NCBI GenBank assembly: GCA_046757025.1
Contig: JBHHXN010000050.1
Coordinates: 1 to 31,512 of the forward strand
DNA length: 31,512 nucleotides
Direction: 5' to 3'
Source of the DNA: a bacterium
GTDB taxonomy: Bacteria; Zhuqueibacterota; Zhuqueibacteria; Oceanimicrobiales; Oceanimicrobiaceae
Shown here: positions 1 to 19,195 of the stretch, one piece after another
How positions within the stretch are numbered: position 1 is the stretch's first letter
How the letters are laid out: each line of letters starts with the position of its first letter
Made by a program: the position numbers and the translations under genes
Notes under the pieces: model-generated
The model's database searches: none
What the model saw: the letters and a program-made list of their open reading frames with translations, nothing else
What the model was told of the DNA's origin: nothing

Positions 1-69
1 AAGTACATTCATTTCATATTGTCAGCAAGCTCAAATATCTTCTGCGAAACTTGAGATTTTAATAGCAAT

Positions 70-1611
70 TCAAGGTATTTTAAGAAGAATTATCGTCCCA
101 TGTTTTGTTTCGATACTATCCACGGCCATTCCGGTTTTCAGGCTCGTCGTTTGCAACTGGTCAAAGAGACCTCGATGCAGGTACAATTCATTTGACCGCG
201 AAATCAAGTTGCGATTCCGTATTTCAGGTGAAATTGAAAAACACTCAAAATGTTCCCATAAGAAAGGAAGTCGGCTGATCACCACTACCTGCTCGGGCAA
301 CGATCTTGACCAATTCTGAATTTGGGCATGTTCAAGCGCCGGACTGGTGTTCTGTTCATTAAATTGATTCCACACTTCCTCTCGATTTGGTAGCAAAATG
401 AAATAACCGGCCAAAACAGCCGTCATCATCCGAACACGAAAGCAGTTTGGTGATATTTTTGAAAGAAGAACTGCAGCCATCACCGACAAGCCGGCCATTT
501 GAAGCAAGAAAAACCGGCTACCGCCGGCGACATCGTACCGGCCGACTGAGTAAAATAATAGCAAAACAAAGTGTGAAACTGGAATCAACATCCAGGCTAT
601 CCAAGCGGTGATAACATTCGATGGTTTTTCATTTCCACGTTGCCATTTAATATAAATCAAAAAAGCGATAGCAGCAAACAAAAGCATGGGCCAGGGGCTG
701 TATTTAATCATAAATTTTAAATTGCTCATTAAATTGGAGGGGAAATAGGTCATAGAAAACCGCGATTCGGGTAAATTCATCAGATAGTATTTTTTCAAGG
801 ATAACACATGGATGACAAAACTCAACAGGAGCGCTCCCCCGGTCATCAAAAATAGCGCAACGTGTCGATTTGAAAATTTGATTTGTGATTTTCGAAACAA
901 AATAAATAACGGCAGGGTAACGATGATGTTTTCCAACCGAATGTGCAGAGCGATGAAGCCGGAGATGAAAGCCACAACCATCCAATCGGCGCCATCACCA
1001 TTTTGATTTTGCGACCGGTAATAACTTTCGGTGGCTGCCCAGAAAGATAAAACGAGCATGAGCAAAGCCAACGGTTCAGAGGCTCCTGAGCGGTACCAGC
1101 CGCCAACCACCGGATGCATGCCGTAAAAGATCACAACCGCATGCCCTGCTAAACCATTAGCGGCCAATCTCGCTGTAAGCGCCATCATCAATAAGAGAGT
1201 CAGGGACTCACAAACCTCATTAAAAATCTTTGGCCCCCGTTCCGTCCCAGCCCACGCCACAAACGGCATCATAAAAGCAGGAAAGCCGATGGGCCACTTG
1301 AAAAACCGCACTTGTTTCTGGCTGTCCGCCCACGCTTTCGTCACCGTGCCTCCGTATCCGTGCAGCATATTGAAAGCCATATTCGCATAGACATCTTCAT
1401 CATAATATATGCGATGTTGTTTTGGATGCTTGACATGATTCCACCCAACCACCAAACCCCAAACCATAATTGCAGACAAAAAGTATTCCCAGGAGGAAAC
1501 GATTTTTTTTAGTAAATTCCTTTTATAGAAGATCAGGTACAGCAGCCAGATGGTCATGGTCAAAAGAGTCAGGCACAGTACCAGTAGGGTTGCATAATGA
1601 TAAAAATACAA
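70..1611 (-). CDS. Multi-pass membrane glycosyltransferase, GT-C fold (PMT/ArnT-like)
   Basis: 513 aa with many hydrophobic segments. An acidic motif YYDEDVY follows the N-terminal TM helices, as in GT-C enzymes, with SEPL and RLEN loop motifs. TTG start with GGGAG 9 nt upstream. Follows a GT2 gene. Confidence 0.7.
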   Translation of the reverse strand: MYFYHYATLLVLCLTLLTMTIWLLYLIFYKRNLLKKIVSSWEYFLSAIMVWGLVVGWNHVKHPKQHRIYYDEDVYANMAFNMLHGYGGTVTKAWADSQKQVRFFKWPIGFPAFMMPFVAWAGTERGPKIFNEVCESLTLLLMMALTARLAANGLAGHAVVIFYGMHPVVGGWYRSGASEPLALLMLVLSFWAATESYYRSQNQNGDGADWMVVAFISGFIALHIRLENIIVTLPLFILFRKSQIKFSNRHVALFLMTGGALLLSFVIHVLSLKKYYLMNLPESRFSMTYFPSNLMSNLKFMIKYSPWPMLLFAAIAFLIYIKWQRGNEKPSNVITAWIAWMLIPVSHFVLLLFYSVGRYDVAGGSRFFLLQMAGLSVMAAVLLSKISPNCFRVRMMTAVLAGYFILLPNREEVWNQFNEQNTSPALEHAQIQNWSRSLPEQVVVISRLPFLWEHFECFSISPEIRNRNLISRSNELYLHRGLFDQLQTTSLKTGMAVDSIETKHGTIILLKIP

Positions 1612-1730
1612 GTCCGTATTCTCCCGAATTTAAACCGATCAGTCGCCACTTAACTTTTCTTATTTGCTGAAAATGTCGTAACTTGTTTTGTGCTGCATGC
1701 CCGACGAAGCAGATTTCCCAGTAAAAATGC

Positions 1731-2444
1731 TCATTTTGCCAGACTGGTTTGATACGTATATCGCAAGCATTTGAAAAAGAAAGATAAGCCAGATCTAATA
1801 ACATGCATTTTGGACTGATCAGCCCGACGCCGCTGATAAAATAACGGTACTTCATGAAAGGCTAAATTTTTACTGGCAGCGCCGAACATAAGGTCGAAAT
1901 CGCCCCATCGACAATTTGAAGGCGGTAGGTCAAGAAAGTTCACTCTGGAAATGGCCTTGACGCCGCACAAAACATCCGAGATTTTTCGGCCCAGCAATCG
2001 TGACATCCAGAAAGCAAAAAAGAGATTTCCCCAGCGATTCAAACGGGGCATGGCGCCTTTTTCCATTTTATCGGCAAAGCGAGAGCCGAACACAAACCGA
2101 TTCGGGTCTTGTTTGAACAGGGAAACCACCGCGCGGAGACTGGCTGGCGCAATGGTTAGATCGGCGTCGTAGATTACGATGACATCGCATTCGATGCATT
2201 GTGCAGCGAATCGAACAGCCTGATTTTTACCGCCATTTTTTGGAAGAAAGAAAGCTTGCAAGCGGGGTGTAAATCGATTCTGCAATGTCCACAGCAATCT
2301 TCCGGTGCCATCGGTGGATGCGTCATCCACCACGACCACTCGATCAAACAGCTCCAAGGCCAGCAATTCAAAAACACATGCTTCAATGTTTTTAACCTCA
2401 TTGAAGCAGGGAACGATAACTGCAAAAGTAAGCTTCGGTTTCAT
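1731..2444 (-). CDS. Glycosyltransferase family 2 (polyprenol-phosphate glycosyltransferase, DPM1-like)
   Basis: Motifs VIVPCFNE, VVVDDASTDGT, NGGKNQA, DADL (DxD), GSRF, ISDVLCGVKA, EVPL. Confidence 0.9.
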   Translation of the reverse strand: MKPKLTFAVIVPCFNEVKNIEACVFELLALELFDRVVVVDDASTDGTGRLLWTLQNRFTPRLQAFFLPKNGGKNQAVRFAAQCIECDVIVIYDADLTIAPASLRAVVSLFKQDPNRFVFGSRFADKMEKGAMPRLNRWGNLFFAFWMSRLLGRKISDVLCGVKAISRVNFLDLPPSNCRWGDFDLMFGAASKNLAFHEVPLFYQRRRADQSKMHVIRSGLSFFFKCLRYTYQTSLAK

Positions 2445-2643
2445 GACTTAAACCATTTTACCCGGTGGAATAACATTCGAACGATGCAGCGCCGTGGCCA
2501 GGACAAAATCGACAACGGTCGTTGCAATGCTAAGTGACAAAGATGCACGGCCACTCCACATGCAAGCTCAATTGGCAACCTCGAGAGTAGGGGTCACAAA
2601 GCCGGTTCTGATTTCCGGAGACGGCATCGCCGTTCTCAACGCA

Positions 2644-2659
2644 AGCCCCAAAAGGGGCT
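2644..2659 (-). terminator. Short GC-rich hairpin just downstream of precursor A1 (weak terminator or mRNA stabiliser)
   Basis: AGCCCC-AAAA-GGGGCT perfect 6-bp stem, 5 nt after the stop codon, with no strong U-tract. Confidence 0.35.
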
Positions 2660-2664
2660 ATCCA

Positions 2665-3201
2665 CTAATTGGGGTACCAGTAGGAGACCGTTCTTCCGCC
2701 TTCGGTGTCACAGGTACATACCCGGTCGCAGGTGCAAACGGTATCGCAATCACATTGTCTAGTGGGGACGGTATCGCAGGTGCAGACCGTATCGCAGGTA
2801 CAGACGGTTTCGGTGCCAGGATAAGTACGATTTGTGGCAACGCAGTCGCAAAGGCATGTGGCGCCCTTTGGTAAAGGCTGGTCACAGGCAATGGTTTTTA
2901 TGGCTTTGCCCATGCGGCGGTCGGTTTGAGAGATATTTTGGGTATCGTAGCGTCGGGTGCGTTTTGAGCTTGAGCAGCCCGTACTCATGTTGGCCACGGC
3001 GGCTCCGCCAGCCACCGCTGCCGCAGTGGTGGAAAGCATTTTTAAAAATGCCCGCCGGGATTGCGAATCGCTTTCACGCCGGTCAACTATTTTTAGAATT
3101 TTGGCTGGCTCGCGATTTTTTTCTCCTTTGGCCGGTTGGATGAGATGATCGGGTGCTTGGGCAGGGTGAGATCGATCTACTTTTTTTTGTTTATCAATCA
3201 T
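2665..3201 (-). CDS. Cys-rich putative rSAM-modified precursor protein A1 with twin-arginine signal
   Basis: 178 aa, GGAGG RBS. SRRAFLK followed by an Ala/Gly-rich stretch and GC. CLCDC plus five CxCD repeats, 15 Cys, C-terminal SYWYPN. Paralog of 3356..3832 and downstream of four rSAM genes. Confidence 0.85.
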   Translation of the reverse strand: MIDKQKKVDRSHPAQAPDHLIQPAKGEKNREPAKILKIVDRRESDSQSRRAFLKMLSTTAAAVAGGAAVANMSTGCSSSKRTRRYDTQNISQTDRRMGKAIKTIACDQPLPKGATCLCDCVATNRTYPGTETVCTCDTVCTCDTVPTRQCDCDTVCTCDRVCTCDTEGGRTVSYWYPN

Positions 3202-3355
3202 TGTTCCTCCTCACAAAGCAAACACAAAAAATGTTTATCCGCTCGTTTTTATTTTAACAACGTAATAAAGGCCAAATTTGGCAGCCAATATTTAAGAACC
3301 TGATAAACTGTGAGCCTGCACAAATTGCCATTCACCAGTGAATTACAAAACCGCT

Positions 3356-3832
3356 TTAGTTGGGGTACCAGTAACTTCCACCACCGCCACCTTCCGAATC
3401 GCAGGTACAAACCCGGTCGCAGGTACAAACGGTATTGCACGTGCACACCGTGTCACATCTGCATGTTTGATAGGAGTGGCTTGTGGCTACGCAATCACAT
3501 AAACAAACTGCCCCTGCAGGCAAAGGATCGCTACAAGGCATTGATTTCACAGAGCTCCACTGCGATTCTCTTTGCGTATCATACTCACTTTCCATCGGGT
3601 TCGAACAACCCTGGTTGATACCAGAAACCGCCGCGCCACCAGCTAATGCCGCTGCAGTGGTGGACAGCTTTTTCAAAAAGTCCCGACGCGTTTGCGAATC
3701 ACCCTCACTTCTATTAACAATATTTAGAATCTGAGCCGGTTCTTTCGCATTTTTGTCCTCTAATGGTTTGATAGTGTGATCCGGAGGCGACTGTTTTTGC
3801 TGTCGGTGCGATTTGTTGTGTTTTTTTGCCAT
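3356..3832 (-). CDS. Cys-rich putative rSAM-modified precursor protein A2 with twin-arginine signal
   Basis: The ORF track starts at 3844, but the ATG at 3832 (MAKK) has GGAGG 5 nt upstream. TRRDFLK followed by an Ala/Gly-rich stretch and GC. CLCDC plus four CxC(D/N) repeats, 13 Cys, C-terminal GGGGGSYWYPN. Confidence 0.85.
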   Translation of the reverse strand: MAKKHNKSHRQQKQSPPDHTIKPLEDKNAKEPAQILNIVNRSEGDSQTRRDFLKKLSTTAAALAGGAAVSGINQGCSNPMESEYDTQRESQWSSVKSMPCSDPLPAGAVCLCDCVATSHSYQTCRCDTVCTCNTVCTCDRVCTCDSEGGGGGSYWYPN

Positions 3833-3938
3833 TTTTTCCTCCATTATTTAAGGTGTTATGATAAAAACTTGTTCTGTTATTTCGAGGTGTACACTACTGC
3901 TGTAGTTCTTTCAGTAAGAACAGTTATCCTCAAGCGCA

Positions 3939-4031
3939 GTCTTTGCGAGCGATCCAACTGAGCGGGAGAGCGAAGCAATCTCCTTCCCCTGTATCTGGAG
4001 ATTGCATCGTCACTTCGCTCCTCGCAAAGAC
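3939..4031. repeat. Palindromic intergenic repeat element (REP/RPE-like)
   Basis: Terminal IR GTCTTTGCGAG...CTCGCAAAGAC with inner IR GCAATCTCC...GGAGATTGC. Related sequences at about 20305-20370 and 27221-27468. Confidence 0.8.
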
Positions 4032-4049
4032 GGGTTGTACTTAGAAACT

Positions 4050-5477
4050 TTATTCGGTTGTCAGGATCTTCTCCTTCCTGTTCTGGGTCGTTGAAGACAC
4101 CTGACGAGATCGAAACATTTCACTAAACCAGGCCCGGACCGCCAATTTATTCACCTGACACCGGAAGCCTCCCTCTCCTCGGTCATCTGTTTGTAAAAGA
4201 CACACATCCGGACAGTCCCTGGCACAATGGTAAATGTTCACGCAATCGAGGCAGCGCCGGGGGATGCGTGCCGCCTGCTGTCGCAACTGCGCCACACGTG
4301 GATGATTTAGTGCAAAGCCGGGGTCTGGTTGAAAAATTTCTTCCCCGATTTTCATGCTTGGTCCATTTGAGCTGCGGCTGTCCACGGTTAAAAAGCACAC
4401 CGTAGCCGTTCCATCCGGCGTAAGGTGCAGCACATTCCGAAACAGGTGACAGTATGGACCATGAATCTCCTCGGTTCGAACGCCCGACATGCTCAGGTTG
4501 GCGCCCATGGAATGCGCAGTCTTTTGTGCCTCCACAAAAGATTCGACAAACTCCCGGGCCGCTTGTTTCTGAAAACCTTCGGACCTGGAATGGTTCGTCA
4601 AGTAAACCGGCTCGAACCGAATCGTTTTCGCTTTGAATTCACAGCAAAATAACGCGACGATGTCTTTTTGCCGGTGAAAAGAATTCGGCGTGATCGTGGC
4701 TCGGATGGCGAACGGAACGCCTCTTTGAGCAAACAGATTCGCGGTTCGCTTCACAATTTGAAAGGTCGGTTGACCGTTCATCATAGGCCGCTGATCATTT
4801 TGAATATTTGCCGGACCATCGCACGAAAGACCGATGAGATTGAAATGGTCGGCAAGCCATTCGGCTCGGTTTTTCGGTAGAACGCCATGCGTGGCAATGT
4901 ATGCCCACCATTCAAGCCCATATTCGTGGGCGATTTTTCTCGTGCAGGCGACGATAGCTTGCAAGAGCTTCCAATGCAGCGTGGGTTCGCCGCCGCCGTG
5001 CAAAACAAGCGTAAAACGTTTGTTTTTTTTCTGACAGATTTTCGCCACCGCATGCGCGGCAGTTTGAACGGTCTGTTCGTTTATCACCGGCAGTTTTGAA
5101 TCCGCACCGTGGCGAATAGTATTCTGCGAAATACCCTGTTCCCCACAGCGGCCATTTTCATTTGCCGCAAAACAATAGCGGCAGCTCAAGTTACATTTAT
5201 TACTGAGATAGACGGTCAGGCATTCCGGCGTAAACGGCGCACTGGCCAGTTCCTGCCATCGCGATTTTGCTGCGGCAGCCGCCTCGATCAATTGAGACGC
5301 GGCCGCGGGTAATTCTAATCCTGCTGGCGCCGGCAGATGATTCAAATAGCCGGCGAATCGCTCTGCTTCCGCAGGGGAGAGCCATTGCGGACGCCCCGGG
5401 GCGTAGGCCAGATACCAGTATCTTTTTTTAATTAAAAAAATGGGCAGATCACGATGTAGCTTTTTGATTTTCATCAT
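4050..5477 (-). CDS. Radical SAM/SPASM-domain peptide maturase (rSAM-4)
   Basis: CNLSCRYC motif, HGGGEPTL, LSCDGP, and a C-terminal Cys cluster C..C..CLDC-x5-CARDC..C. The likely start is the ATG at 5477, overlapping the upstream TGA (ATGA); the ORF track extends to 5567. Confidence 0.9.
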   Translation of the reverse strand: MMKIKKLHRDLPIFLIKKRYWYLAYAPGRPQWLSPAEAERFAGYLNHLPAPAGLELPAAASQLIEAAAAAKSRWQELASAPFTPECLTVYLSNKCNLSCRYCFAANENGRCGEQGISQNTIRHGADSKLPVINEQTVQTAAHAVAKICQKKNKRFTLVLHGGGEPTLHWKLLQAIVACTRKIAHEYGLEWWAYIATHGVLPKNRAEWLADHFNLIGLSCDGPANIQNDQRPMMNGQPTFQIVKRTANLFAQRGVPFAIRATITPNSFHRQKDIVALFCCEFKAKTIRFEPVYLTNHSRSEGFQKQAAREFVESFVEAQKTAHSMGANLSMSGVRTEEIHGPYCHLFRNVLHLTPDGTATVCFLTVDSRSSNGPSMKIGEEIFQPDPGFALNHPRVAQLRQQAARIPRRCLDCVNIYHCARDCPDVCLLQTDDRGEGGFRCQVNKLAVRAWFSEMFRSRQVSSTTQNRKEKILTTE

Positions 5478-6865
5478 CCAACAATGGCGTTTAATGAAGT
5501 GTCTGCCGTGGCCGCTTTCAGCGTATGAAAGATTTGATCTTTGGTCAGCTCCTGGTTTATGTAACAACGGTCCGGCGCCTGCGGGTAGAGTTGTCCGCCT
5601 TCACGGGCTGATTTGGCAGGGCAATCGCCAGCACAGTGGTATTTGCAAAAACATTTTGAACAAAACGGTTTGTTTTGAACGGTTAATCCGTACAATTTTT
5701 TTCTTCGTTCCTCATCGATAACCATTTTTCTTGCGTTTCGGTCGAAATGGCCGTAAACAAACAGACTCGATAGCGGGTCGTCGAGGTCGAGTACTTCGAA
5801 GCAGCTCGTAATGATGGCGTTCGGGGTCACGGCGCAGGAGTTGCCAGCGGCTTCGCAGAAGATGTTTGACAAGACGCCAAAGCGGGCGCCCGAATAAGAA
5901 AGATTGCGGCCGAAGCGCATGGCAATCTTTCGAGCTTTTCTGAAACAGGTGACAAAATCCCGTGCTGCCGGCGATTTGAGATCGGATTCGATGGCGCGGC
6001 CTTGCGGAAACATCGGCTCGATTTTGATCTGCCTGGCTGCAAACTCTTCACAAAAAAACTGCACGATTTCCTCCAGTCGATGCACGCTTTTTGAGGTGAC
6101 CGTGGTGCGGATGCCGTACTGAAATCCGTTCCGATCAAAATCTTTGAGCGTTTCGAAAACGTGCATGAATGAGCCTCTGCCATTTGGAAGCGGTCGGTGC
6201 AGGTTCTGGATATCTTCGACGCCATCCACCGACACCGTGGCGCTGTCTATATTTTCAACAATCCAGCGGCGCTGTTTTGGATTCAAAATTCCCGCCAGGC
6301 CGATGGCGGTAGTGACTTTGATTTTATGCGGCGAGGTTATTTTGTGAGCATATTCCATGGTGTCTTTCAGCAGATTCCAGGCCGTGGCCACGTCTCCGCC
6401 TCCGTGAAAAATCACCGACAGGCGGCGGCTGCCAGCCTGACGCACATTCCGGCACACTTCATCCAGCACCCCGGTAACAACGTCAAACGGCATTCTGAGG
6501 ATATTTTTACCAGGAGTCAGCTCCCCACCCAGGGCATAACAATATTTGCAGCGCAGCGGACAATCGTTGGTGAGAAACAAGGTGACGCTTTGCGGTGCTA
6601 ACGGCGGTAGCGGGCGCGCGCGCCGCATTCGAGCCCGCTCCTTCCGGCTGTCAAACAACATGTCGATAAATCCTGAATTCACCCCGAGCTCGGCAATGGC
6701 AACTTTGTCGCCCTGTCGGGCACGGTAAAGCAGGTTGACGAAACGGGCGTTGGTTTCCAGCACGATCCCTTTGAGCGGTAAATAAAGGACATAGCGATCA
6801 TCCTTAGAAATACAGAAAACATCTTCAAACAACGACGCTGGTAATTTTTTATTTGCAGAATGCAT
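5474..6865 (-). CDS. Radical SAM/SPASM-domain peptide maturase (rSAM-3)
   Basis: CPLRCKYC, VSVDG, SPASM-type FC..TSC..CSKCFCKYHCAGDC..RC, GAGG RBS. The GGE motif appears as GGGDV. Confidence 0.9.
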   Translation of the reverse strand: MHSANKKLPASLFEDVFCISKDDRYVLYLPLKGIVLETNARFVNLLYRARQGDKVAIAELGVNSGFIDMLFDSRKERARMRRARPLPPLAPQSVTLFLTNDCPLRCKYCYALGGELTPGKNILRMPFDVVTGVLDEVCRNVRQAGSRRLSVIFHGGGDVATAWNLLKDTMEYAHKITSPHKIKVTTAIGLAGILNPKQRRWIVENIDSATVSVDGVEDIQNLHRPLPNGRGSFMHVFETLKDFDRNGFQYGIRTTVTSKSVHRLEEIVQFFCEEFAARQIKIEPMFPQGRAIESDLKSPAARDFVTCFRKARKIAMRFGRNLSYSGARFGVLSNIFCEAAGNSCAVTPNAIITSCFEVLDLDDPLSSLFVYGHFDRNARKMVIDEERRKKLYGLTVQNKPFCSKCFCKYHCAGDCPAKSAREGGQLYPQAPDRCYINQELTKDQIFHTLKAATADTSLNAIVG

Positions 6866-6879
6866 GAATACCTCATTCG

Positions 6880-7887
6880 TTAATTGGCAGTCATTCTGAT
6901 GGTATTTTGTAATTCTCCGGTTGACACGTTAAATTCAATTCGTCGATAACGCCGCATGGAAGCTGCGAGACATCCGCCGCTGCATTTATTTTGTATCATC
7001 CAGGTGCATTCAGCACAGTACTGGTGGAGCCTCACTTGACGATCGTGGGCTTGTTTTCTCGCGTATTGTGTTCGCAGCCACACGGCATTGTGTTTTTCTG
7101 GTAAAGGCAAGTTCACGTGTTTGAACAAGGGATAGCAGGAAATCGTCTGGCCGTTTGCAAGAATATCGATAATTGGGCTGCACGTTAACCCGACCTGACG
7201 CGCACCCATACCCAAATACTCCATCGCGCCTTCCGGGAACATGCAGGGCACCCAGCCGCAGTCGAAATCGATGGAAACGCCTCGCTTCCGGGCACGCACA
7301 GCAAATTCCGTCGCGCGCAGGCCAACTTGCGGGTAATGGTTTGGATGCAGAAATTCATTCCGACTTTCGGGATCCGGGTGAGAAAGACCGAGCCGCACGC
7401 ATTTAATCAATCCGTATTCCTGAATCAGATCGAGGATGAAATCAAGCTCAATCCCCGGACTAAAAATATTGATCCCCGGCATGACACAATTTCCTAGTTG
7501 TTTGCACAGTTCACGCTGTCGGGCATGCTCGGATGGTTTGCCTTCCTGTGGATGAAGAAGATTCAACAGCAGTTTCAGTTTACGGCCTTTCATTTTTTTC
7601 AGTGCATGGAGCACTTTGTTCGGCACCAAGCCGCCGGTAAAAATCAACAGTCGCATCTGGCGCGCCAATGCAATCTGAATCATCTCCAGAAATTGCGGAT
7701 GCAGCGTGGGTTCGCCTCCTAGCAGGCGAACCTCATTTATGCCGGAGCGCTGCAAAAAATGTAAAGCGCGTTCATATTGTGTTAGCGACATGAAACTTTG
7801 CAAATCCGGCAACTTACCTAATTTCTCCATTGCAAAACAGTAAGAGCAGGCGCGATTACATTTCGATGTGATGGAAAGATTAGCCAT
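6880..7887 (-). CDS. Short radical SAM protein with C-terminal SPASM/twitch-type Cys cluster (rSAM-2)
   Basis: CNRACSYC at residue 10, LGGEPTLHP, DCGWVPC, C..C..CAEC-x7-CSGGC. No N-terminal extension; overlaps the upstream RRE gene by 8 nt. Confidence 0.9.
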   Translation of the reverse strand: MANLSITSKCNRACSYCFAMEKLGKLPDLQSFMSLTQYERALHFLQRSGINEVRLLGGEPTLHPQFLEMIQIALARQMRLLIFTGGLVPNKVLHALKKMKGRKLKLLLNLLHPQEGKPSEHARQRELCKQLGNCVMPGINIFSPGIELDFILDLIQEYGLIKCVRLGLSHPDPESRNEFLHPNHYPQVGLRATEFAVRARKRGVSIDFDCGWVPCMFPEGAMEYLGMGARQVGLTCSPIIDILANGQTISCYPLFKHVNLPLPEKHNAVWLRTQYARKQAHDRQVRLHQYCAECTWMIQNKCSGGCLAASMRRYRRIEFNVSTGELQNTIRMTAN

Positions 7888-8164
7888 GGTTTTCCTCCCT
7901 CACTAAAAATCCCATGGCAAACCACTCATGCAAAGACTCCAAAAGCAATCTTTCTGCGTCCGGCTCATCGAGTGTGGCTATGTGAGCCAGCATGCGCACC
8001 GCCACCGGCAGGCGGTAACCACGACTCACCAAGTCCCAAACCGCGGCTTGCGGGTATTCTATGTGCAAGTGTTTTTGCGAACCTTTCACAAGCAGCAATC
8101 CCCGTCTTTCGACAACCCACCGAACTTCGGGCGCCACCTTGAATTTCTCGGGTGAATTCGTCAT
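7880..8164 (-). CDS. Stand-alone PqqD-like RiPP recognition element (RRE)
   Basis: 94 aa with a beta-strand then helix pattern typical of PqqD (AAVWDLV...LAHIA...AERLLLESLHEWFAMGFL); located between rSAM genes. Confidence 0.7.
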   Translation of the reverse strand: MTNSPEKFKVAPEVRWVVERRGLLLVKGSQKHLHIEYPQAAVWDLVSRGYRLPVAVRMLAHIATLDEPDAERLLLESLHEWFAMGFLVREENHG

Positions 8165-8184
8165 TTAAAAGCTCACTTTATCAA

Positions 8185-9639
8185 TTAACCAAAAATGCCG
8201 AAACCCTCTGCAATTAAAGCGCCAGAGGGCTTTTGCTCATTTGAATTTGTGTGTGCGGCTTCTCTGAATGTCTGTCCCATGAGTGAAACGGCATCCCTGT
8301 CATGGAAAGCCAGTTTTCTCATGGCGGTTCGGTTTTGCAAAAGTTCCTGAATCAATTCTTCATAACCAAGTTCGCTCAACAGCAGGCAGGCCGTGATGAT
8401 GCGCGTTTGAATGCAGAAATCGTCGTATTCCAACGAACGATCTGGAAAACTGTGGTGGACATGGCAGCCGCCGGCGCACGTCCACTGGCAAAAACAATCT
8501 TCACACAGCGGCTTTGCCATCGGCAGTTGCCGCACTCGATCGAGGGCGGCGTAATCGATATGTCCTGTGCCGTCAGCGTTGAACTGCCCCACATCCATGT
8601 TCTGTCCGCGCTGCAACCAATCTTCCTGCGGCAAATAACATGCGCTGGCGCGACCGTCCGCCGACACAATCAAAGCGTCGGTTCCCACCGGACAAAAAGA
8701 GATGCGGCTTTTGGCGATGTCCACTGCGGCATTGATGACTTTGATTCCCAGCTTACGGCCAGTTTTGATCGCTCGCATAAAGTTTATCGCAAAGTCGTAC
8801 GGCCTGGGTGGGGTGAGTCCGGCTTTTGTGGAAAGCTCCCCCGGAGTAAGCGGTTCGAAATTCACCACCACCGGATTGAACTCCTGGTACATCCAGCGAA
8901 CGATGGCCTCCAAATCGTGCACCGAATCCTGCGTCACGCAAACGCGCAAACAAAGTTGGACGGGTTTAGTGCTCAAACTGCGAGCCGTTTCCACCACGAG
9001 ATCAAAAGTACCCTGGTTATTCATGGCGGGTCGGTTACGGTTATGCGTATTTTTGAAACCGTCCAGCGACAGCACGATGGCATCGAAATAATCGCCAATA
9101 AAGACGCTTCGGCTTTTACTAAAAACACCGTTGCTGGAAACATCAAAAAAGGGGATCAGGTCGTTCTGGGCGCAGACGTAGCGTGTGCGGTGTACCACGA
9201 TGTCAACCAGCTCGGGGGCAGTGAAGGGCTCCCCACCAAAGAAATGTACACGAAAATATTTTTTACCGCTTTTCTTGAGCCTCTCAGCCATCCAGTCGAT
9301 GGCCGTTATGGCAATCCGAGGATCCATGTTTTCCCGCACCGAGGTGGGTCCGCCGAAATTGCAATAAACGCAATTTATGTTGCATCCTCTCGTGGTGATG
9401 ATGCCGAGAAATGACGGACAGATTTCACCTTTCAAAGGCGAGGGTTTTCGAAGTGGTTTCGTTGCCAGATCACGATATAAATTTGCCAGCTCGGCCGCAC
9501 CCTCAGAAAAATGACCCTGACGAAACTCTGCGGCAGCCGTATTGTTGAGCAGGGCGAAAAGGTCGCAGAGGGGTGCAAAGAGCAGCCACTTGTCCATTAT
9601 CGGAATTAAAAACACCCCATTTTGAGAAGATTTCAGCAT
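8185..9639 (-). CDS. Radical SAM/SPASM-domain peptide maturase (rSAM-1)
   Basis: CNINCVYC, FFGGEP, SSNG, LSLDG, SPASM FCPVG..SAC..CEDCFCQWTCAGGC..FC. Confidence 0.92.
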   Translation of the reverse strand: MLKSSQNGVFLIPIMDKWLLFAPLCDLFALLNNTAAAEFRQGHFSEGAAELANLYRDLATKPLRKPSPLKGEICPSFLGIITTRGCNINCVYCNFGGPTSVRENMDPRIAITAIDWMAERLKKSGKKYFRVHFFGGEPFTAPELVDIVVHRTRYVCAQNDLIPFFDVSSNGVFSKSRSVFIGDYFDAIVLSLDGFKNTHNRNRPAMNNQGTFDLVVETARSLSTKPVQLCLRVCVTQDSVHDLEAIVRWMYQEFNPVVVNFEPLTPGELSTKAGLTPPRPYDFAINFMRAIKTGRKLGIKVINAAVDIAKSRISFCPVGTDALIVSADGRASACYLPQEDWLQRGQNMDVGQFNADGTGHIDYAALDRVRQLPMAKPLCEDCFCQWTCAGGCHVHHSFPDRSLEYDDFCIQTRIITACLLLSELGYEELIQELLQNRTAMRKLAFHDRDAVSLMGQTFREAAHTNSNEQKPSGALIAEGFGIFG

Positions 9640-9650
9640 GCTAATCGGGT

Positions 9651-10118
9651 TTATTCTAATTCTTCAATTTCATTCGCGGGAATACAAATGCGATGTTGAA
9701 TTAGTTTGAAAAACACATTATTAACCTCCCTCCGGGCATTCTCGATATCGATTTGGAAATGGTTAGCCACCTCCTGCGCGGTATTTTCAATAGAAACGGT
9801 TCCTCCAAATCGCGCCAGAATAAACTCGATCACCTCGCTGGCCTCAAACAGATTCACTTCCGTGCCTTTCTCAAGGTGCCGGGCTTTGATCGCGGTGGGC
9901 TCCACGATCAAATTGTATTCCGCCAAGATGGCAGGTTGAATTTTTGCAATAACTTTGTCAGGAAAATTGAAAATCTCTGAAAGTTTCCTCTGGCGAACAC
10001 CCCGCATTTCATCAAACAGAGATGTGGCTTCGGCAAGAAAGGAACGAAAAAATCGACGACGATTGACTTTTTTTTCGATGAGTGACATGGCGCAAGGTGT
10101 TTTTAATCGGGTGCTCAC
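9651..10118 (-). CDS. Protein with C-terminal PqqD/RRE-like domain and N-terminal RRxFF motif
   Basis: The C-terminal EFILARFGGTVSIENTAQEVANHFQIDIENARREVNNVFFKLIQHRIC resembles PqqD helices; the N-terminus has NRRRFFR. The start is either GTG 10118 or ATG 10088 (MSLIEKK). Confidence 0.65.
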   Translation of the reverse strand: MSTRLKTPCAMSLIEKKVNRRRFFRSFLAEATSLFDEMRGVRQRKLSEIFNFPDKVIAKIQPAILAEYNLIVEPTAIKARHLEKGTEVNLFEASEVIEFILARFGGTVSIENTAQEVANHFQIDIENARREVNNVFFKLIQHRICIPANEIEELE

Positions 10119-10130
10119 TCATTTGATCTG

Positions 10131-10210
10131 GTGTGAAAAGTAACCGAAACGGCTCTAAACTCGACCACACATAGATGTCATTCTCTATGTTTGACTTTTC
10201 ACACAGCCTC
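10131..10210. repeat. Inverted-repeat element of the same family as 23372-23552
   Basis: GTGTGAAAAGT...ACTTTTCACAC. The reverse complement of the right arm, GAGGCTGTGTGAAAAGTCAA, matches GAGCCTGTGTGAAAAGTCAA at 23373. Confidence 0.65.
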
Positions 10211-10595
10211 ATTCAGAAAACGGTCTTCGTTACTTCCTGGAACTTTCAGTTGCGCGTCATTCAGCAGAACGAAAAATTCCGTTTAGTAAAATACTTGGAG
10301 TATGCAAAGTTGATTCGCTTTTCTAAAGAGTCCTCCCAAAAGTGAGCCCCAACACAGATCGTCTTTAGCTCGCAAGTACAAATTGAAAATAGTGAATAAA
10401 AAACAGAAATGAATTCGAGAAGCTGCTTTCTGCAACCCTATTTTCGATCCCCGGGCTATTTTCAGAAAGATTCTTGGCTTTATTTATAGTGTTAGAAAAA
10501 CCGATGCTTAAGAGTGAGAGATTTCAGAAAGTACAGGTATCCGCTACTACTCGGAAAAGAAAATACGATTACGTTTTCGCTTTAAACGTTAAATA

Positions 10596-10624
10596 ATTAT
10601 ACTCATTCATTTTCATAAAAGCAA
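10596..10624 (-). promoter_or_regulatory. Sigma70-type promoter facing the rSAM operon
   Basis: Minus strand TTGCTT (10624-10619), 17-nt spacer, TATAAT (10601-10596), AT-rich upstream. Confidence 0.6.
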
Positions 10625-11093
10625 GTAAAAAAATTTGTCTTATCTCAAATTGAACAAGACTTTCATCGTCTACAATGTTTTGAATTTCTAATAACAGTTT
10701 AAAGTTGTTTTTCTGCGTATAGTAAACAGCTACTATTCATCAAAACCGTCATGCAGAGCATCTCACTGAAAGAACCAGTGCAAATCATCTTGTGAACCGG
10801 TTAAGAGATTTTTCGCACATCGGAACCAGTGGAGATGAACAAAGACACCGGAAATTGCGCAGAGAACGACCACCCCGGCTGAAGAGTTACAGTAAGCATT
10901 TAATTTAACTTGAAGTTCCTACATCATGTGGCGTTCCATTCCAAGTCTTTTCGAGAGAATATCAGTGTTATAAAATAGCCCTTAAAAAAGACCGACCGTA
11001 GCAAATCGACCTTCGAAAATATTTTTTGAAATTTTCGGCTGTGAAGAAGACGTTAACCGTTGCACTTTTCGTGATATCCGTTCACGATGAAAA

Positions 11094-11384: not shown

Positions 11385-11543
11385 TAATGTCTGAACGAAA
11401 ACTCGAAAAATGCACGATTTCTAAACCTGTTCGCGATGGCGTCCCTTCGACATAGCTCAGGACAGGCTCCGCCTAATTAAGCAGGAATACCCCCTCAGCG
11501 TGGAGGCCATCGGGAAGATAGTGTCGTTTTCGTTCAGACACTA
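11385..11543. mobile_element. MITE-like element with terminal inverted repeats
   Basis: Perfect 15-bp IR TGTCTGAACGAAAAC (11388-11402) / GTTTTCGTTCAGACA (11526-11540), extendable with one mismatch to TA at both ends. Internal CCCTTCGACATAGCTCAGGACAGG REP-like motif. Confidence 0.6.
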
Positions 11544-11771: not shown

Positions 11772-12761
11772 TCAAGGAGACACCTCCGTTCCCAAACTTA
11801 GTTTCTCCGCATTCACTAGCGCCTGACTGGCAGCAGCTAAATCCTGTACTGCGTTGCCCACGGATTTAAAAAAAGTGATCTCCGTGTCAGAGGTACGGCC
11901 CGGTTTTGTGCCAGCCGCGATTTCGCCGATTTCCGCATAAACATGATCGGTGTCGATAAGTCCCGCCTGCAGCGGCTGCAGCAAATCGCCGGCTTCGCGC
12001 AAACACGACGGCCGGTGATCGACGATGACTTTCGCCTGCTGCACGGTTTCCACCGGAATCTCGGCCATGTCCGGGCGGTAGGCGCCGATGCCGTTGATGT
12101 GTACGCCTGGCCGCAAATGTTGATGCCAGAAAACCGGCGTCGTGGCGGTGGTTGCGGTACAGATTATATCCGCATGCTTCAGCAAATCCAACTCATTTGG
12201 CACTTCAATTGTGATCGCTAATTTTTTCTGCATCTCCCTGGCAAATCTCACCGCCTTTGAGGGATCGACGTCGAAGACGAAAGCCCTCTCGATGGTTCTG
12301 ACTGCGCACACGGCTTCGAGCTGCGCGCGACCCTGTACGCCGGCGCCAAAGATGGCGGCAACCCGGGCGTCCGAACGTGCCAGCAGATCCGTGGCCAGTC
12401 CGGAGGCGGCACCGGTGCGCAGGGCCGTCAGATATTCGCCATCCATCAATGCCAGCGGTTGGCCGGTGACGGAATCCAAAACCACTATCATGGCATGAAT
12501 CAGCGGCAGCCCATTGGGCGGGTTTTCATCCATGATGGACACAATTTTGACGCCAATCTTGCGATTTTCTTCAAGGTAGGCTGGCATGAACAACACCCGG
12601 CCTTTTTCCTTTGGCACCTCCAGGTTCATCCGAACCGGCACCACGGCCAGCCCGGACGAAAGCTGCACAAAAGCCTCTTTCATCAGGGCGATGGCCTCTT
12701 TCAGGGACAGCGCTTTTTTGACGTCTTCCCTGGAAAGTACGCGAATGGTTTGATTTGTCAT
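11772..12761 (-). CDS. Ornithine cyclodeaminase/mu-crystallin family protein, probable delta1-pyrroline-2-carboxylate reductase
   Basis: [35 protein letters not shown] and [10 protein letters not shown] motifs; clustered with a trans-3-hydroxyproline dehydratase. Confidence 0.85.
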
Positions 12762-12809
12762 TGAACTTTCCTTAAAGAAAAGGGGTGCAGAGAATAAAAT
12801 GATTCACAA

Positions 12810-13320
12810 CGCGACAAAGCCGCAAACAGCAATTGAATCACAGAATTCCAGACGCAGCCTTTTGACACAATAAATAATTAAACCACGGATTGACCCGGAT
12901 ACGCACGGATGAATGCCTATTGTGAAAAATAATAGACGAATTCATAAAGCTAAAAATTTTAAATGTACTTACAACCACATTTATTGAAACTGTGTTTTAT
13001 CCGTTCTACAAACCTGCAATGTTGTGTTTTTTTTACTAAGTTTCTGAGTGGACTCTGGTTGCCAAATATCTGTACAGCGTGAAAGCCATTAACGCAGAGG
13101 CGCGAAGGACGCAGAGGTTCGCAATGATTTTTGATTTTACTTGGATTATTCACAAATCAGGATTTTACGCTCAAAATCGAAAAACTGAGTACGGAGCATT
13201 TTTAAAATAGTCCTGTTTTTTATTTAAATTATTTCTTTTTTCTCTGCGGTCCTCTGCGCCATCGGAGTTTTATGCGTTTAACATTCTGGTCGCGGCTTTA
13301 CAGCGCGGTGCAAATCCGTG
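12810..13320. repeat. Nested palindromic repeat elements in a long intergenic region
   Basis: AAAGCCGCAAACAG (about 12816) pairs with CTGGTCGCGGCTTT (13286). CACGGAT-like repeats at 12881-12910 pair with ATCCGTG at 13314. ACGCAGAG repeats at 13091-13116 pair with CTCTGCG repeats at 13242-13258. Confidence 0.6.
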
Positions 13321-13451
13321 TCTAAAATATTTTAAATAGTTAGTTAGTCAAAACATTGTCATAAAACAATAAACTGCAGATTAGTATTACAGAATTTGGA
13401 TAAAATGTTTTTACTCTTTGGCGACTTCATCCTCATATTTATGATGTTGAA

Positions 13452-14840
13452 TTAGCTTGATGCTAATTCCTCGACCTCGGCAACGGTTTTTGGAATAGGC
13501 TTTCCCAGGATTCGACATCCTGTGTCCGTTACCAGCACGTCCTCTTCGATGCGAATGCCGCCAAACTCTCGGTACTTTTCCACTTCCTCATAATTAATGA
13601 AATCTGTAAATTTCTTTTCCGCCCGCCATCTGTCCATCAATTGCGGAATAAAATAGAGCCCCGGCTCCACGGTGATGACATAGCCCGGCTGGAGTCGTTT
13701 ACCCAGCCGCAAAGAGCGCAGTCCGAACTGCTCGCTGCGTTGGGTTTCCTCGTCGTATCCCACCAGGTCTTCGCCCAGCGCCTCCATGTCGTGCACATCC
13801 AGTCCCATCATGTGCCCGAGCCCGCACTGAAAAAACAGCGCATGCGCCCCCGCTGCCACCGCCTCTTTGACATTGCCTTTCATCAGTTGGTTATCTTTTA
13901 GTCCCTGTGTAAGATGTTCACAAGCCAACAGATGAATGTCTTTGAATTTGGCACCGGGCTTCACCGCGTCGATGGCAAACTGCAGCGCATTGTAAACAAT
14001 TTGATACATGGTTTTCTGCAGATCGGTGAATTGACCGGAGACCGGTATAGTGCGCGTGATGTCGCTGGCATAGTGCCAAGCCGAAGCCGCGCCGCAATCG
14101 TTCACCACCATATCGCCGGCATGCATGGTGTTGCCGTGGTAGTGATTGTGCAAGGTTTCCCCGTGTACGGAAAAGATAATGGGAAATGCCAGCTCACCGC
14201 CCCGGGCATGCGCCAGACCCGCCATCATACCCGCGATCTCTCGTTCGATCATGCCTGGCTGCGTTTGGCGCATGGCGGTGGTGTGCATTTCATAACTGAT
14301 GTCGAGAGCGGCATCGATTTGAGTAATCTCCTCCGACGATTTGACCGAACGCTGATCGACAACGATTTCGACCAGCTCGTGCGATACGGAATGATCGACT
14401 TGCGTGGGAGTCATGCCGGAAATTTGACTGAGTAAAATTAAATTTTCTGCGCGATACAACGGTAAAAAATGTATTTTTCTTCCTTTTTTAAGGGCCTTTT
14501 GTAATTCGATCTCTAACTGCTCGAACGGCGCGCTTTCTGCCACGCCCACTTTTTCGCTTTCTTCGCGCAAAAGCGGCTGCGGACCCGTCCAGACGATCTC
14601 TTCCACGGTCGCATCGTTGCCAAAAAGAACCTGCCGGTTTTCGTCTACATCCATCACCGCGGCGAGTCCCGGCGAATCCAACCCCCAGTAGTACAAGAAG
14701 GAGCTATCCTGCCGAAACGGATAAGCGTTGTCGCGGTAGTTTATAGGGCTTTCCTGGTTTCCCAAAAAGATCAGAATTCCCGAATCAATTTGTCGCATTA
14801 GATTCTGTCTTCGTTCGCTGTAAATTTTAGCATCAAACAT
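13452..14840 (-). CDS. Xaa-Pro aminopeptidase/prolidase (M24B)
   Basis: FRQDSSFLYYWG, LHNH, DCGA..YASDITRT, GHMMGLDVHD, TVEPGLYF, GIRIEED; GGAGG RBS. Confidence 0.92.
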   Translation of the reverse strand: MFDAKIYSERRQNLMRQIDSGILIFLGNQESPINYRDNAYPFRQDSSFLYYWGLDSPGLAAVMDVDENRQVLFGNDATVEEIVWTGPQPLLREESEKVGVAESAPFEQLEIELQKALKKGRKIHFLPLYRAENLILLSQISGMTPTQVDHSVSHELVEIVVDQRSVKSSEEITQIDAALDISYEMHTTAMRQTQPGMIEREIAGMMAGLAHARGGELAFPIIFSVHGETLHNHYHGNTMHAGDMVVNDCGAASAWHYASDITRTIPVSGQFTDLQKTMYQIVYNALQFAIDAVKPGAKFKDIHLLACEHLTQGLKDNQLMKGNVKEAVAAGAHALFFQCGLGHMMGLDVHDMEALGEDLVGYDEETQRSEQFGLRSLRLGKRLQPGYVITVEPGLYFIPQLMDRWRAEKKFTDFINYEEVEKYREFGGIRIEEDVLVTDTGCRILGKPIPKTVAEVEELASS

Positions 14841-14881
14841 GTCGCCTCCGGTTGTCGGTTATTATTGGATTGATTTATACA

Positions 14882-15670
14882 TTAAGCTAGACCGCCGCCG
14901 TCCACCACCAGATGGGCGCCGGTGACCCAACTGGACAATTTACTGGCAAAGAAAAGAACCGCATTGGCCACGTCCTCCGGCTGCCCCACCCGATTGAGCG
15001 GCCGTTTCGCCGCCTCCCGCAAAAACTCATTTTGGTCGATGCCCAGCTGCCGGGCTTCGTTGTGCAGCAATTCGGTTTCCACATCCCCGGGACAAACACA
15101 GTTCACGCGAATTTGGTGTTTACCGTGATCGATGGCCATGGCACGCGTCAGATTGAGCACCCCGCCTTTGGCCGCACAATAGGCAGCAGCCTTAGCGCCG
15201 CCTTTTAACGACCAGCCCGAACCCGTGTTGATGATGCTGCCGCCGCCGTTTTTGATCATGTGTGGAATAATCTGTTTTGATAGCAGATAGATTGATTTCA
15301 GGTCGGTATCCACCACCCGATCCCATTCTTCTTCGGTCAATTCAAGGACGTTATTGCGACGGATAACGCCGGCGTTGTTGAACAGAATGTCTATTTTGTT
15401 GAAGCGGTGAAGGATCTCATCCGTGACTTTTTCACAGTCCGTTTTTGAAATAACATCGCAGAGAAAAAAGTGCGCCCGGCCGCCAACATCTTGAATCTCT
15501 TTTGCAACCTGTTCGCCAGAGCTGACGTTGACGTCTAACAAAGCCACCGTAGCGGCCAATTCTGCAAATCGTATGGCGGTAGCGCGACCAATTCCGGAAG
15601 CGGCGCCAGTCACAACGGCTACTTTGTCTTCTAATGAAATGAGCTGCGTCGCTCGGGTTTGGGTGTTCAT
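14882..15670 (-). CDS. Short-chain dehydrogenase/reductase (SDR)
   Basis: TGAASGIG, NNAG, YCAAK catalytic motif, IRVNCVCPG. Confidence 0.92.
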   Translation of the reverse strand: MNTQTRATQLISLEDKVAVVTGAASGIGRATAIRFAELAATVALLDVNVSSGEQVAKEIQDVGGRAHFFLCDVISKTDCEKVTDEILHRFNKIDILFNNAGVIRRNNVLELTEEEWDRVVDTDLKSIYLLSKQIIPHMIKNGGGSIINTGSGWSLKGGAKAAAYCAAKGGVLNLTRAMAIDHGKHQIRVNCVCPGDVETELLHNEARQLGIDQNEFLREAAKRPLNRVGQPEDVANAVLFFASKLSSWVTGAHLVVDGGGLA

Positions 15671-15709
15671 ATAATTTACTCCAAAAGTTAGTCAGAGTTC
15701 GTAATCCGC

Positions 15710-17035: not shown

Positions 17036-17100
17036 TGGATATTCCAGTTTGAAGTGCAACGAACTGAGAAAATAAATTTATCAAAGCAGTCATTTTTTAC

Positions 17101-17137
17101 TTGATCGATACGTATGTTATCATTATATTTTTACGTA
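17101..17137 (+). promoter_or_regulatory. Sigma70 promoter of the TA operon with two TACGTA palindromes (putative autoregulatory operator)
   Basis: TTGATC (17101-06), 17-nt spacer, TATATT (17124-29). TACGTA at 17109-14 and 17132-37. AGGAGG RBS follows. Confidence 0.6.
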
Positions 17138-17155
17138 TAAATATTTAAGGAGGTA

Positions 17156-17407
17156 ATGATGAATACAAAACTCACGTTAAAACTCGATAAACAAGCCATT
17201 GAGAGCGCAAAAGAATATGCACAGAAAACCAATCAAAGTCTATCTATTTTGGTTCAAAATTTTTTTAATGTCATAGCTGCAAAAGTTGATAATCAAAATG
17301 ATGATATTTCACCACTTGTGCAAGAATTATCTGGCATCATTCATTTAGAAAATAACATTGATCTTAAAGAAGAGTATCATAAACATATCAACGAGAAATA
17401 TTCATAG
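17156..17407 (+). CDS. Antitoxin, ribbon-helix-helix type (DUF6364-like)
   Basis: MNTKLTLKLD..IESAKEYA....SLS.LV pattern; 1-nt overlap with the downstream PIN gene. Confidence 0.8.
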   Translation: MMNTKLTLKLDKQAIESAKEYAQKTNQSLSILVQNFFNVIAAKVDNQNDDISPLVQELSGIIHLENNIDLKEEYHKHINEKYS

Positions 17408-17832: not shown

Positions 17833-17934
17833 CGATTCAATTTTTTGACTAAATCCAACAATTTCGATTTTGTTAACCTAACACCCAAATGTCCTCAAAA
17901 TGCATGAATTCTATTTGCAAATCATTCAATACCT

Positions 17935-19071: not shown

Positions 19072-19195
19072 TTTTTCCTGGCCCGGACCAGCCGGGGCTT
19101 TATTTAAGTGAAAAGGTTCCTATTTCGCTGTTGGCGGTTGGTTTTTAGCTGTTGGCTTTGAGCTTATTGAGTACCGTCCTTAAAAATTGACAAAT

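Follow-up and report, generated by a model that had tools for sequence, protein, structure and literature searches.

A run of ten minus-strand genes at positions 70-10118 of a bacterial contig (JBHHXN010000050.1, assembly GCA_046757025.1; the 31,512 nucleotides analyzed are referred to here as the window) encodes a real, conserved, and widespread system that is uncharacterized and apparently undescribed. In this system, which resembles those producing peptides made by the ribosome and modified after translation (RiPPs), four to six radical S-adenosylmethionine (rSAM) enzymes likely modify both a cysteine ladder and an aromatic tail of proteins whose export by twin-arginine translocation (Tat) is predicted. 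We named the genes, in order of transcription, RRE155, rS1, RRE94, rS2, rS3, rS4, precursor B, precursor A, GT2, and GT-C, that is, two stand-alone RiPP recognition elements (RREs), four rSAM enzymes, two precursors, and two glycosyltransferases. The original prediction, made from sequence alone, had reported ten co-oriented genes, and all are present on the minus strand at the place it gave. It had extended the cluster over 70-10624; the start is correct, but the genes end at 10118 and 10119-10624 holds no cluster gene.

Conservation of the cluster

Only three of the 113,076 stop-to-stop frames in the genome encode a protein with both ladder and tail, and every one lies beside rSAM genes, so the association with the cluster is not due to chance. 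A pattern scan of genome contigs returned 61 loci from 14 named phyla plus five unassigned. At least one orthologue of a SPASM enzyme from the window was found in 55 of these 61 precursor-anchored loci and all four in 19, with many loci cut by contig ends. The reverse search, anchored on rS1, gave 80 metagenome loci, among which a tail-bearing precursor was present in 15 of 15 at ≥ 15 kb, 22 of 25 at ≥ 12 kb, 27 of 32 at ≥ 8 kb, and 35 of all 80 (9 of 15 in the longest class under a stricter ladder rule, before inspection). Homologous clusters thus keep the precursors, in support of the original prediction. Within the host phylum, rS1 orthologues occurred in this genome and in 5 of 166 others, implying that the system is patchy there.

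Clusters in other genomes repeatedly contained a HemN/HutW-like rSAM enzyme, a sixth rSAM enzyme resembling archaeal DUF8061 proteins, and a U32-like domain that was often fused to rS2. The four maturases first proposed are therefore correct for the window but too narrow for the system, as many loci hold six rSAM domains and a U32-family protein. A full-text literature search returned no description of the system and only one, unrelated, paper containing "YWYPN". Most subscription journals, RadicalSAM.org, and bioRxiv supplements lay outside this search, and the cluster enzymes may sit unnamed in published sequence networks.

Architecture of the precursors

Precursors A and B contain 15 and 13 Cys, respectively, are 52% identical to each other, and both pass the TIGR01409 Tat signal model, which bears out the pair of paralogous 13-15-Cys proteins first described. 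Searching with precursor A found 45 proteins, and a profile built from 33 of them retrieved 366 representatives at 50% identity. Our statistics refer to 206 unique tail-bearing homologues, 204 of them full length, which were chosen on the tail motif such that their tail frequencies are biased by the query. A leader motif, ExPx[IV][FYL], was present in 167 tail-bearing homologues, with its Pro exactly 16 residues ahead of the twin Arg in 109 of them; precursor A carries the variant EPAKIL with the twin Arg 16 residues on. The ladder is built from a hexad, C-[T 67%, S 18%]-C-[D 47%, N 30%, H 12%]-x-[V 84%], and the tail reads (H)Y-W-(Y/H/R/F)-P-(N), with Y in 205, W in 189, P in 206, and N in 160 of the 206 motif-selected proteins. 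Many homologues have a Gly-rich spacer ahead of the tail, and several have none, their last Cys lying 4-9 residues from the end.

Homologue length varied widely, with 111 of the 206 shorter than 231 residues and 95 longer. In the long homologues, WD40 propellers, SH3_3, or N_BRCA1_IG domains separate the signal from the ladder. Precursors range from 100 to 680 residues, and folded cargo reaches about 500. Since the cargo is exchangeable or absent, leader-signal and ladder-tail behave as a portable module. These sequences suggest a plan in which a Tat signal contains the predicted RRE leader, cargo (WD40, SH3, Ig) may follow, and a (CxC[D/N]xV)n ladder precedes an (H)YWYPN tail. The early view of an uncharacterized RiPP-like system acting on exported Cys-rich proteins fits this plan, but its scope of 160-180 residues was too narrow: the module also flanks folded domains as long as about 500 residues, and the window precursors represent its short form. 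We considered the WD40 cargo as a possible enzyme and rejected this idea, its repeat consensus being generic, with no evident catalytic positions. The precursor profile matched no solved structure, and Atlas matches for precursor B were all below 0.9 and served as leads only.

Recognition elements and predicted export

The label of PqqD-like proteins, first given to RRE94 and RRE155, held in part: their predicted models match the RREs of lasso-peptide B1 proteins, but neither passes the Pfam PqqD cut-off. The RRE94 family profile matched TbiB1 (E 6e-6), and its model (pLDDT, the predicted score of the local distance difference test, 91) aligned to TbiB1 with a template modeling (TM) score of 0.79. 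The RRE155 model (pLDDT 83) reached a Foldseek TM(target) of 0.77 to TfuB1/TbiB1. Both proteins are thus predicted to adopt the RRE fold. A profile comparison related RRE94 to RRE155 (E 1e-4) and gave no match between RRE94 and the N-terminus of rS3. Complex prediction of RRE94 with residues 14-56 of precursor A scored 0.01 and was counted neither way. RRE155 has an N-terminal RRxFF motif in 51 of 57 rows, and we considered it as a Tat substrate. This was rejected because the RRxFF helix is without a hydrophobic region (present in 2 of 57 rows), and RRE155 therefore probably has no Tat signal. Our guess is that the motif might hold back premature export.

Evidence for Tat export of the precursors came from several sources. 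A twin-Arg motif was found in 178 of the 204 full-length homologues and a lipobox-like Cys in 132, and both window precursors conserve a Cys at the lipobox position. Their twin Arg is followed by an uncharged hydrophobic region, TatC is encoded in this genome and in 31 of 33 cluster genomes tested, and Lgt is also encoded in this genome. Elsewhere, an RRE rather than the precursor carries the signal. We counted 24 locus rows (20 unique) with such a Tat-signal RRE, which shows RR and an uncharged hydrophobic stretch in 23 of 27 rows. All of them have a precursor without a Tat signal, and none of the 53 loci with a signal on every precursor has this RRE. In clostridial loci L051 and L053, tatA-tatC-tatC lies directly upstream of the operon, and L050 has two tatC genes; in these and related loci the precursor is without a Tat signal and the RRE has one. 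This pattern suggests hitch-hiker export on the Tat-signal RRE in signal-less loci and direct Tat export in the window cluster. No peptidase or ABC-exporter family was evident among neighbor families present in at least three loci, as read from N-termini with some families checked against Pfam.

The loci with duplicated tatC (L051:601-5674, L053:6178-13556, and L050:6747-13321) belong to a tail-less CVPVH subtype found in Clostridia and Coriobacteriia. Its gene content comprises tatA-tatC-tatC (in Clostridia), a Tat-signal RRE, rS3, the precursor, a TPR protein, a B12-type rSAM enzyme, and a U32 protein.

Radical SAM enzymes and their predicted division of labor

All four enzymes carry CxxxCxxC and pass Pfam Radical_SAM (PF04055), and each family keeps a C-terminal Cys set, as first reported. 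rS1, rS3, and rS4 are paralogues (24-29% identical), each with seven conserved Cys in the SPASM pattern; rS2 begins right at the catalytic domain, with no N-terminal extension, and has eight other conserved Cys. rS1 forms one clade across phyla (support 100), as does rS4 (support 99). None of the four passed any NCBIfam maturase cut-off, the best score being 113 versus 340 bits for rS1 with PapB (NF047865), which was also the best NCBIfam model for rS3. The SCIFF model (TIGR03974) gave at best 92 bits versus a cut-off of 425. The sacti models StsB, RumMC, and SkfB scored far under cut-off with window enzymes, as did the cyclophane-synthase models YhhB, AmcB, GrrM, FxsB, and DynA. The enzymes thus fit no curated family, in line with the claim of an unrecognized class.

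The closest solved structure to rS3 was CteB (E 6e-49), which was also closest to the rS1 family. According to the available text of PMC10352776, PMC8326336, and PMC13692751, the seven-Cys SPASM enzymes QhpD, CteB, and CrpC form non-alpha thioethers, and rS3 likely does so as well. We compared six catalytic-proximity positions taken from PMC10288494, placing the window enzymes by motif landmarks. The residues were Y,H,A/G,S,Y,E in rS3; D/G,F,S/T,S,Y,L in rS1; Y/F,H,A,S,F,K/L in rS4; and F,L,F,N,Y,P in rS2, and they fit neither CteB (F,F,T,S,H,Q) nor StsB (Y,T,I,S,K,L).

Gene content separated the enzymes into two groups. Among 60 loci with an intact precursor, 43 were tail-bearing and 17 tail-less (L059, with no intact precursor frame detected, was dropped). 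rS3 was present in 32 of the 43 tail-bearing loci and in all 17 tail-less ones and was kept in every subtype. None of the tail-less loci contained rS1, rS2, rS4, the HemN-like enzyme, the sixth rSAM enzyme, RRE94, or RRE155, which occurred in 28, 27, 27, 22, 15, 25, and 26 of the 43 tail-bearing loci, respectively. At least one of the five rSAM types other than rS3 was found in 37 of 43 tail-bearing versus 0 of 17 tail-less loci. A B12-type rSAM enzyme showed the opposite distribution (0 of 43 and 11 of 17), and a U32-like protein was present in 15 of the 43 tail-bearing loci. The 17 tail-less genomes, searched whole, contained no rS1-level match (best 133 bits) and no rS4 match at ≥ 175 bits. 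By comparison, rS1 was found elsewhere, at 300-411 bits, in 5 of 10 tail-bearing genomes whose locus was without it. The presence of rS3 in all tail-less loci and of the other types in none points to rS3 for the ladder and to the rest for the tail. We did not rely on Fisher p-values here because kin share gene content.

Proposed mechanism and alternatives

Observed gene content, co-conservation, and distributions, together with modeled folds, led us to a mechanism in which chemistry, binding, and export are predicted. On balance we lean toward a pathway in which the rSAM and RRE proteins would modify both precursors in the cytoplasm, followed by Tat export and attachment of a lipid to the conserved Cys as an envelope anchor. 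The RREs would bind the leader strand within the n-region of the Tat signal. Signal peptidase cleavage removes the signal; as the leader would lie within it, the same cut would take the leader too, and no dedicated protease or ABC exporter would be needed. rS3 probably joins ladder Cys to side chains close by through thioethers of the ranthionine type, which would make the stalk rigid and proof against reduction; the acceptors could be D/N at i+3, or T/V. We hold it equally probable that rS1, rS2, and rS4, with the HemN-like and sixth rSAM enzymes (on contig C209 in this genome), build a cross-linked or methylated head from the aromatic tail. Methyl transfer is a role of HemN-like rSAM enzymes. 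Tat export, whether by the precursor's own signal in the window cluster or by piggy-back on a Tat-signal RRE in other subtypes, is the step in which we have high confidence. The weakest step, and a tentative one, concerns the product, which might be displayed on the envelope as a binding head, scaffolded by propeller, SH3, Ig, TPR, or barrel-like partners and, in a few lineages, glycosylated outside the membrane by GT2/GT-C.

Several observations weigh against parts of this mechanism. The leaders of both window precursors have Ala where the family has Pro, their lipoboxes are non-canonical at -3 (STGC, NQGC), and a lipobox-like Cys is present in only 40 of 74 long homologues. Among 40 loci flagged with a non-Tat precursor, 16 have no Tat-signal RRE; on inspection, most of these look like fragments, wrong starts, or missed Ala-rich signals, and L024 looks like a real exception. 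rS3 shares with CteB only the Ser among the six catalytic-proximity residues, so this test does not confirm thioether chemistry. L056 has a tail and only rS3, and the other 5 of the 10 tail-bearing genomes tested, which are incomplete, gave no rS1 match. Tail state changes four times on the rS3 tree (a quick tree leaving out four second-cluster rS3 copies), with two changes forced by well-supported branches. There are only two independent pairs, both usually concordant and never discordant (sign test p ~0.5), and the correlation between tail and enzymes therefore cannot reach significance. Orthologues of rS1 also occur in two NHLP/Nif11-type clusters that have no ladder precursors.

In these two clusters (L089:202-5383 and L130:541-7041), the rS1 orthologues are accompanied by additional rSAM genes and by precursors of NHLP- and Nif11-like type, one of which ends in MNCCW. 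They apparently represent another undescribed RiPP system.

The tail could instead be a recognition or sorting signal rather than a substrate, with all four SPASM enzymes sharing the ladder Cys and each taking a different Cys or acceptor. The paralogy of rS1, rS3, and rS4 with their common seven-Cys pattern, the similar proximity residues of rS3 and rS4, and a hexad offering two Cys and several possible acceptors are all compatible with this idea. Yet tail-less precursors keep full ladders with only rS3, and L080 retains four enzymes and the tail with its ladder reduced to one CxC, which leads us to regard a pure signal as unlikely. We consider it quite unlikely that the modified ladder and tail form a periplasmic metal chelator akin to bufferins, possibly via Cys heterocycles instead of thioethers. 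CxC repeats and the YcaO genes of seven loci would suit a chelator, bufferins also have signal peptides, some lipoprotein signals, and domain fusions (available text of PMC12452194), and CrpA has been suggested to bind metal (available text of PMC13692751). However, the recurring neighbors included no evident metal transporter, regulator, or MNIO family, and thioethers would take away thiol ligands.

Improbable to a somewhat greater degree is that cleavage at the Gly-rich linker frees a small peptide, acting as an antibiotic or signal, from a remainder that serves as carrier. Aromatic cores are typical of cross-linked RiPP antibiotics, and the spacer in many homologues would offer a cleavage site, but several homologues are without the spacer, no recurring peptidase family was evident, and a 400-residue propeller would be a costly disposable carrier. 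Least probable in our estimation is conversion of the tail to a protein-derived redox cofactor, similar to cysteine tryptophylquinone or tryptophan tryptophylquinone (CTQ/TTQ), made without oxygen and with the propeller as catalytic partner. The U32 family includes O2-independent hydroxylases, and propellers are fused or adjacent in many loci. Quinohemoprotein amine dehydrogenase (QHNDH) offers a precedent, having an rSAM-stapled small subunit with a Trp-derived cofactor (available text of PMC7876137), and a sub-threshold Atlas lead (0.86) pointed to the methylamine dehydrogenase light chain. Set against this are the generic and exchangeable or absent cargo described above, the lack of an evident cytochrome or electron-transfer partner among recurring neighbors, the association of another U32 subfamily with Trp-less precursors, and the absence of a cluster-type U32 from this genome.

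Returning to modification of both ladder and tail, its broadest form is a possibility that we advance with some doubt: a categorically new, portable tagging pathway. In it, up to six rSAM enzymes (including HemN-like and archaeal-type DUF8061 members) would equip any domain placed between a Tat-embedded RRE leader and a ladder-plus-HYWYPN tail with a thioether stalk and with a new aromatic structure or cofactor that takes several enzymes to make. The product would leave by Tat, and in some lineages it would hitch-hike on a Tat-signal RRE via a dedicated translocon. Such a pathway would break two rules of RiPP mining, namely that leader and core adjoin within a short peptide and that the final steps fall to a dedicated protease and exporter. 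Peptide maturation and protein export would be connected in new ways by a Tat signal that doubles as leader and by an RRE that takes its client through Tat, and a module accepting 400-residue inserts would be a natural tool for installing cross-links on folded proteins. More immediately, five or six unassigned rSAM orthogroups, found in at least 14 phyla of mostly uncultured bacteria, gain a predicted substrate and a predicted division of labor. The system probably hides new protein chemistry, and any new cross-linking would be directly testable by co-expression.

Accessory genes, related clusters, and surroundings

The two glycosyltransferases reported earlier were confirmed. GT2 passes PF00535 (best NCBIfam model AglJ, 80 versus 325 bits). 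GT-C has no Pfam match itself, but a homologue passes PMT_2 and one homologue is named GT39 by NCBI. No counterpart of GT2 was found in the 141 other loci (61 genome, 80 metagenome). The GT-C family comprises seven clusters in the protein database and was found in 0 of 166 other genomes of the host phylum. In a second phylum sample, a single genome out of 401 had it, as did 1 of 50 cluster genomes, and both counts refer to the genome of L017. A GT-C homologue lies inside the L017 cluster and more distant members lie in or adjoin L098 and L032 (the latter from a Desulfococcaceae isolate), giving 3 of 141 loci. GT-C is thus a real but rare accessory. We rejected the glycosyltransferases as core genes, and the suggestion of a glycosylated product is weakened, leaving glycosylation at most a lineage accessory. 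L017 itself (1-10744) is a variant of the cluster: its precursor ends in YWY, and besides GT-C it holds two asparagine-synthase-like genes and, upstream, an rSAM gene. Other accessories were YcaO (seven loci: L030, L087, L091, L103, L105, L108, and L111), a secreted barrel-like protein without Pfam match (eight), NHL propellers (seven), PQQ-like propellers (six), and a TPR protein (seven).

The same genome contains a second cluster (G000:C209:1-8293, locus L001) in which the HemN-like and sixth rSAM enzymes are fused. It also has two rS3-like genes (an in-frame TAA interrupts one of them), a 146-residue Tat-signal RRE, a signal-less third precursor ending HYWHPN, and a secreted PQQ-like propeller. 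Paired-rS3 loci akin to it occur in several genomes of the phylum (L160-L165). The C-terminal piece of an rS2-like protein lies at a contig end (G000:C324:2648-3070), and a third locus may exist outside the assembly.

Feature coordinates are given in Table 1. As first described, the enzyme block is tight, with gaps of 11, 20, -8, and 14 nt and a further -4 nt when rS4 starts at ATG 5477 (-94 nt for its longest frame, from a TTG start). Both glycosyltransferase genes are separated from their neighbors by 119-220 nt. Promoter and terminator scans of the window gave signal at shuffle level only. The stretch occurs in four DNA sequencing runs of one study, three of which may be its source, with no RNA run among the matches. 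A palindromic element resembling repetitive extragenic palindromes (window 3926-4045; predicted hairpin -43 kcal/mol) lies between rS4 and precursor B and has 24 other BLAST matches in the genome. Outside the cluster, there is an intergenic inverted repeat at 11385-11543 (18 nt, 94% complementary, 123 nt apart). An amino-acid catabolism block at 11772-29929, with no relation to the cluster, contains two proline-racemase-family genes, ornithine cyclodeaminase-like, DAO, aldehyde dehydrogenase, and DHDPS-like genes, a GntR regulator, and peptidases; it resembles hydroxyproline degradation. A DUF6364 and PIN-domain pair at 17156-17832 on the plus strand, in a stretch of 31% GC, is likely a toxin-antitoxin module.

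Table 1. Positions in the window of the cluster genes and of features within precursor A.
Feature	Positions	Strand	Description
RRE155	9651..10118	-	Stand-alone RRE; probable start ATG 10088
rS1	8185..9639	-	rSAM, 7-Cys SPASM pattern, PF04055; candidate tail-modifying enzyme
RRE94	7880..8164	-	Stand-alone RRE; overlaps rS2 start
rS2	6880..7887	-	Short rSAM, eight further conserved Cys
rS3	5474..6865	-	rSAM, 7-Cys SPASM pattern; predicted ladder thioether synthase
rS4	4050..5567	-	SPASM-type rSAM, paralogue of rS3; start probably at ATG 5477; candidate enzyme for tail modification
Precursor B	3356..3844	-	158 aa from the probable start at 3832; has leader, Tat signal, conserved Cys, ladder, Gly linker, and the tail SYWYPN
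Precursor A	2665..3201	-	178 aa; plan as in precursor B
Precursor A residues 17-76	2974..3153	-	Predicted RRE leader, twin Arg, hydrophobic region, lipobox-position Cys76
Precursor A residues 106-164	2710..2886	-	Ladder with 14 Cys; hexad C-[TS]-C-[DNH]-x-V
YWYPN tail of precursor A	2668..2682	-	C-terminal
GT2	1731..2444	-	PF00535; predicted polyprenyl-phosphate sugar synthase; accessory
GT-C	70..1611	-	Membrane glycosyltransferase, GT-C type, rare family; accessory

Comparison with known systems

Ranthipeptide systems (CteB/CteA, Tte1186, PapB/PapA) share with this cluster rSAM-SPASM enzymes, RREs, and a Cys-rich core. The window has seven-Cys SPASM enzymes and two RREs, but no enzyme fits a curated maturase model or has CteB-like proximity residues, and scores reach at most a third of cut-offs. 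The cluster further differs in having four to six rSAM enzymes per precursor and precursors of 100-680 residues with a Tat signal, cargo domains, and an aromatic tail. The CXXX-repeat rSAM target system (TIGR04115, tSAM_targ_Cxxx_rpt) likewise sets a repetitive Cys precursor beside an rSAM gene and was a weak Atlas lead (0.87, on 11% of members), but the repeat here has period 6 with paired CxC, not 4, TIGR04115 gave at most 52 versus 350 bits, and 0 of 33 precursors matched such a target model. Cyclophane-forming systems (triceptides, darobactin, dynobactin) combine an aromatic-rich core with SPASM enzymes and are the likely model for the tail chemistry. They employ one maturase acting on a short peptide.

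Three further systems act on larger or exported substrates, and the comparisons follow the available text of the sources cited. CrpA/CrpC of Methanococcus voltae (TIGR04463; PMC13692751) has a seven-Cys SPASM enzyme, a protein-sized substrate, and two paralogous precursors, with CrpC cross-linking a repeated CxxQ/D motif in CrpA. It differs in its single enzyme and 17-residue repeat, and that text describes no Tat signal or aromatic tail. TIGR04463 scored 46 bits for rS1, 31 for rS4, and 93 for the C209 copy versus a cut-off of 525, and a term search of three supplements of PMC13692751 did not find the cluster motif. QhpC/QhpD of QHNDH (PMC7876137) pairs an exported small protein with rSAM-made Cys-Asp/Glu thioethers and a modified Trp, but its leader is cut by QhpE and it is exported by the ABC transporter QhpF, whereas the cluster has a Tat signal. 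TIGR03906 gave at most 70 versus 453 bits for window enzymes. The partners qhpA/B/E/F/G are absent from the window, and none was evident among recurring neighbors, where no dedicated HMM search was made; nor was a heme subunit, protease, ABC exporter, or flavoprotein evident around the clusters. Bufferins and oxazolins (MNIO RiPPs; PMC12452194) also have signal-peptide precursors, some of them lipoproteins, with repeats, domain fusions, and modification before export, but rely on a Sec signal and MNIO chemistry in place of a Tat signal, RRE leader, and rSAM enzymes.

We therefore rejected membership of the ranthipeptide, sactipeptide, CXXX-repeat, cyclophane, and QHNDH families. No curated family fits, which leaves standing the original prediction that the class is uncharacterized. 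Judged from sequence, one enzyme would work like those of the ranthipeptide and QhpD/CrpC systems, and the novelty would lie in the Tat-embedded leader, exchangeable cargo, multi-enzyme tail, and RRE hitch-hiking.

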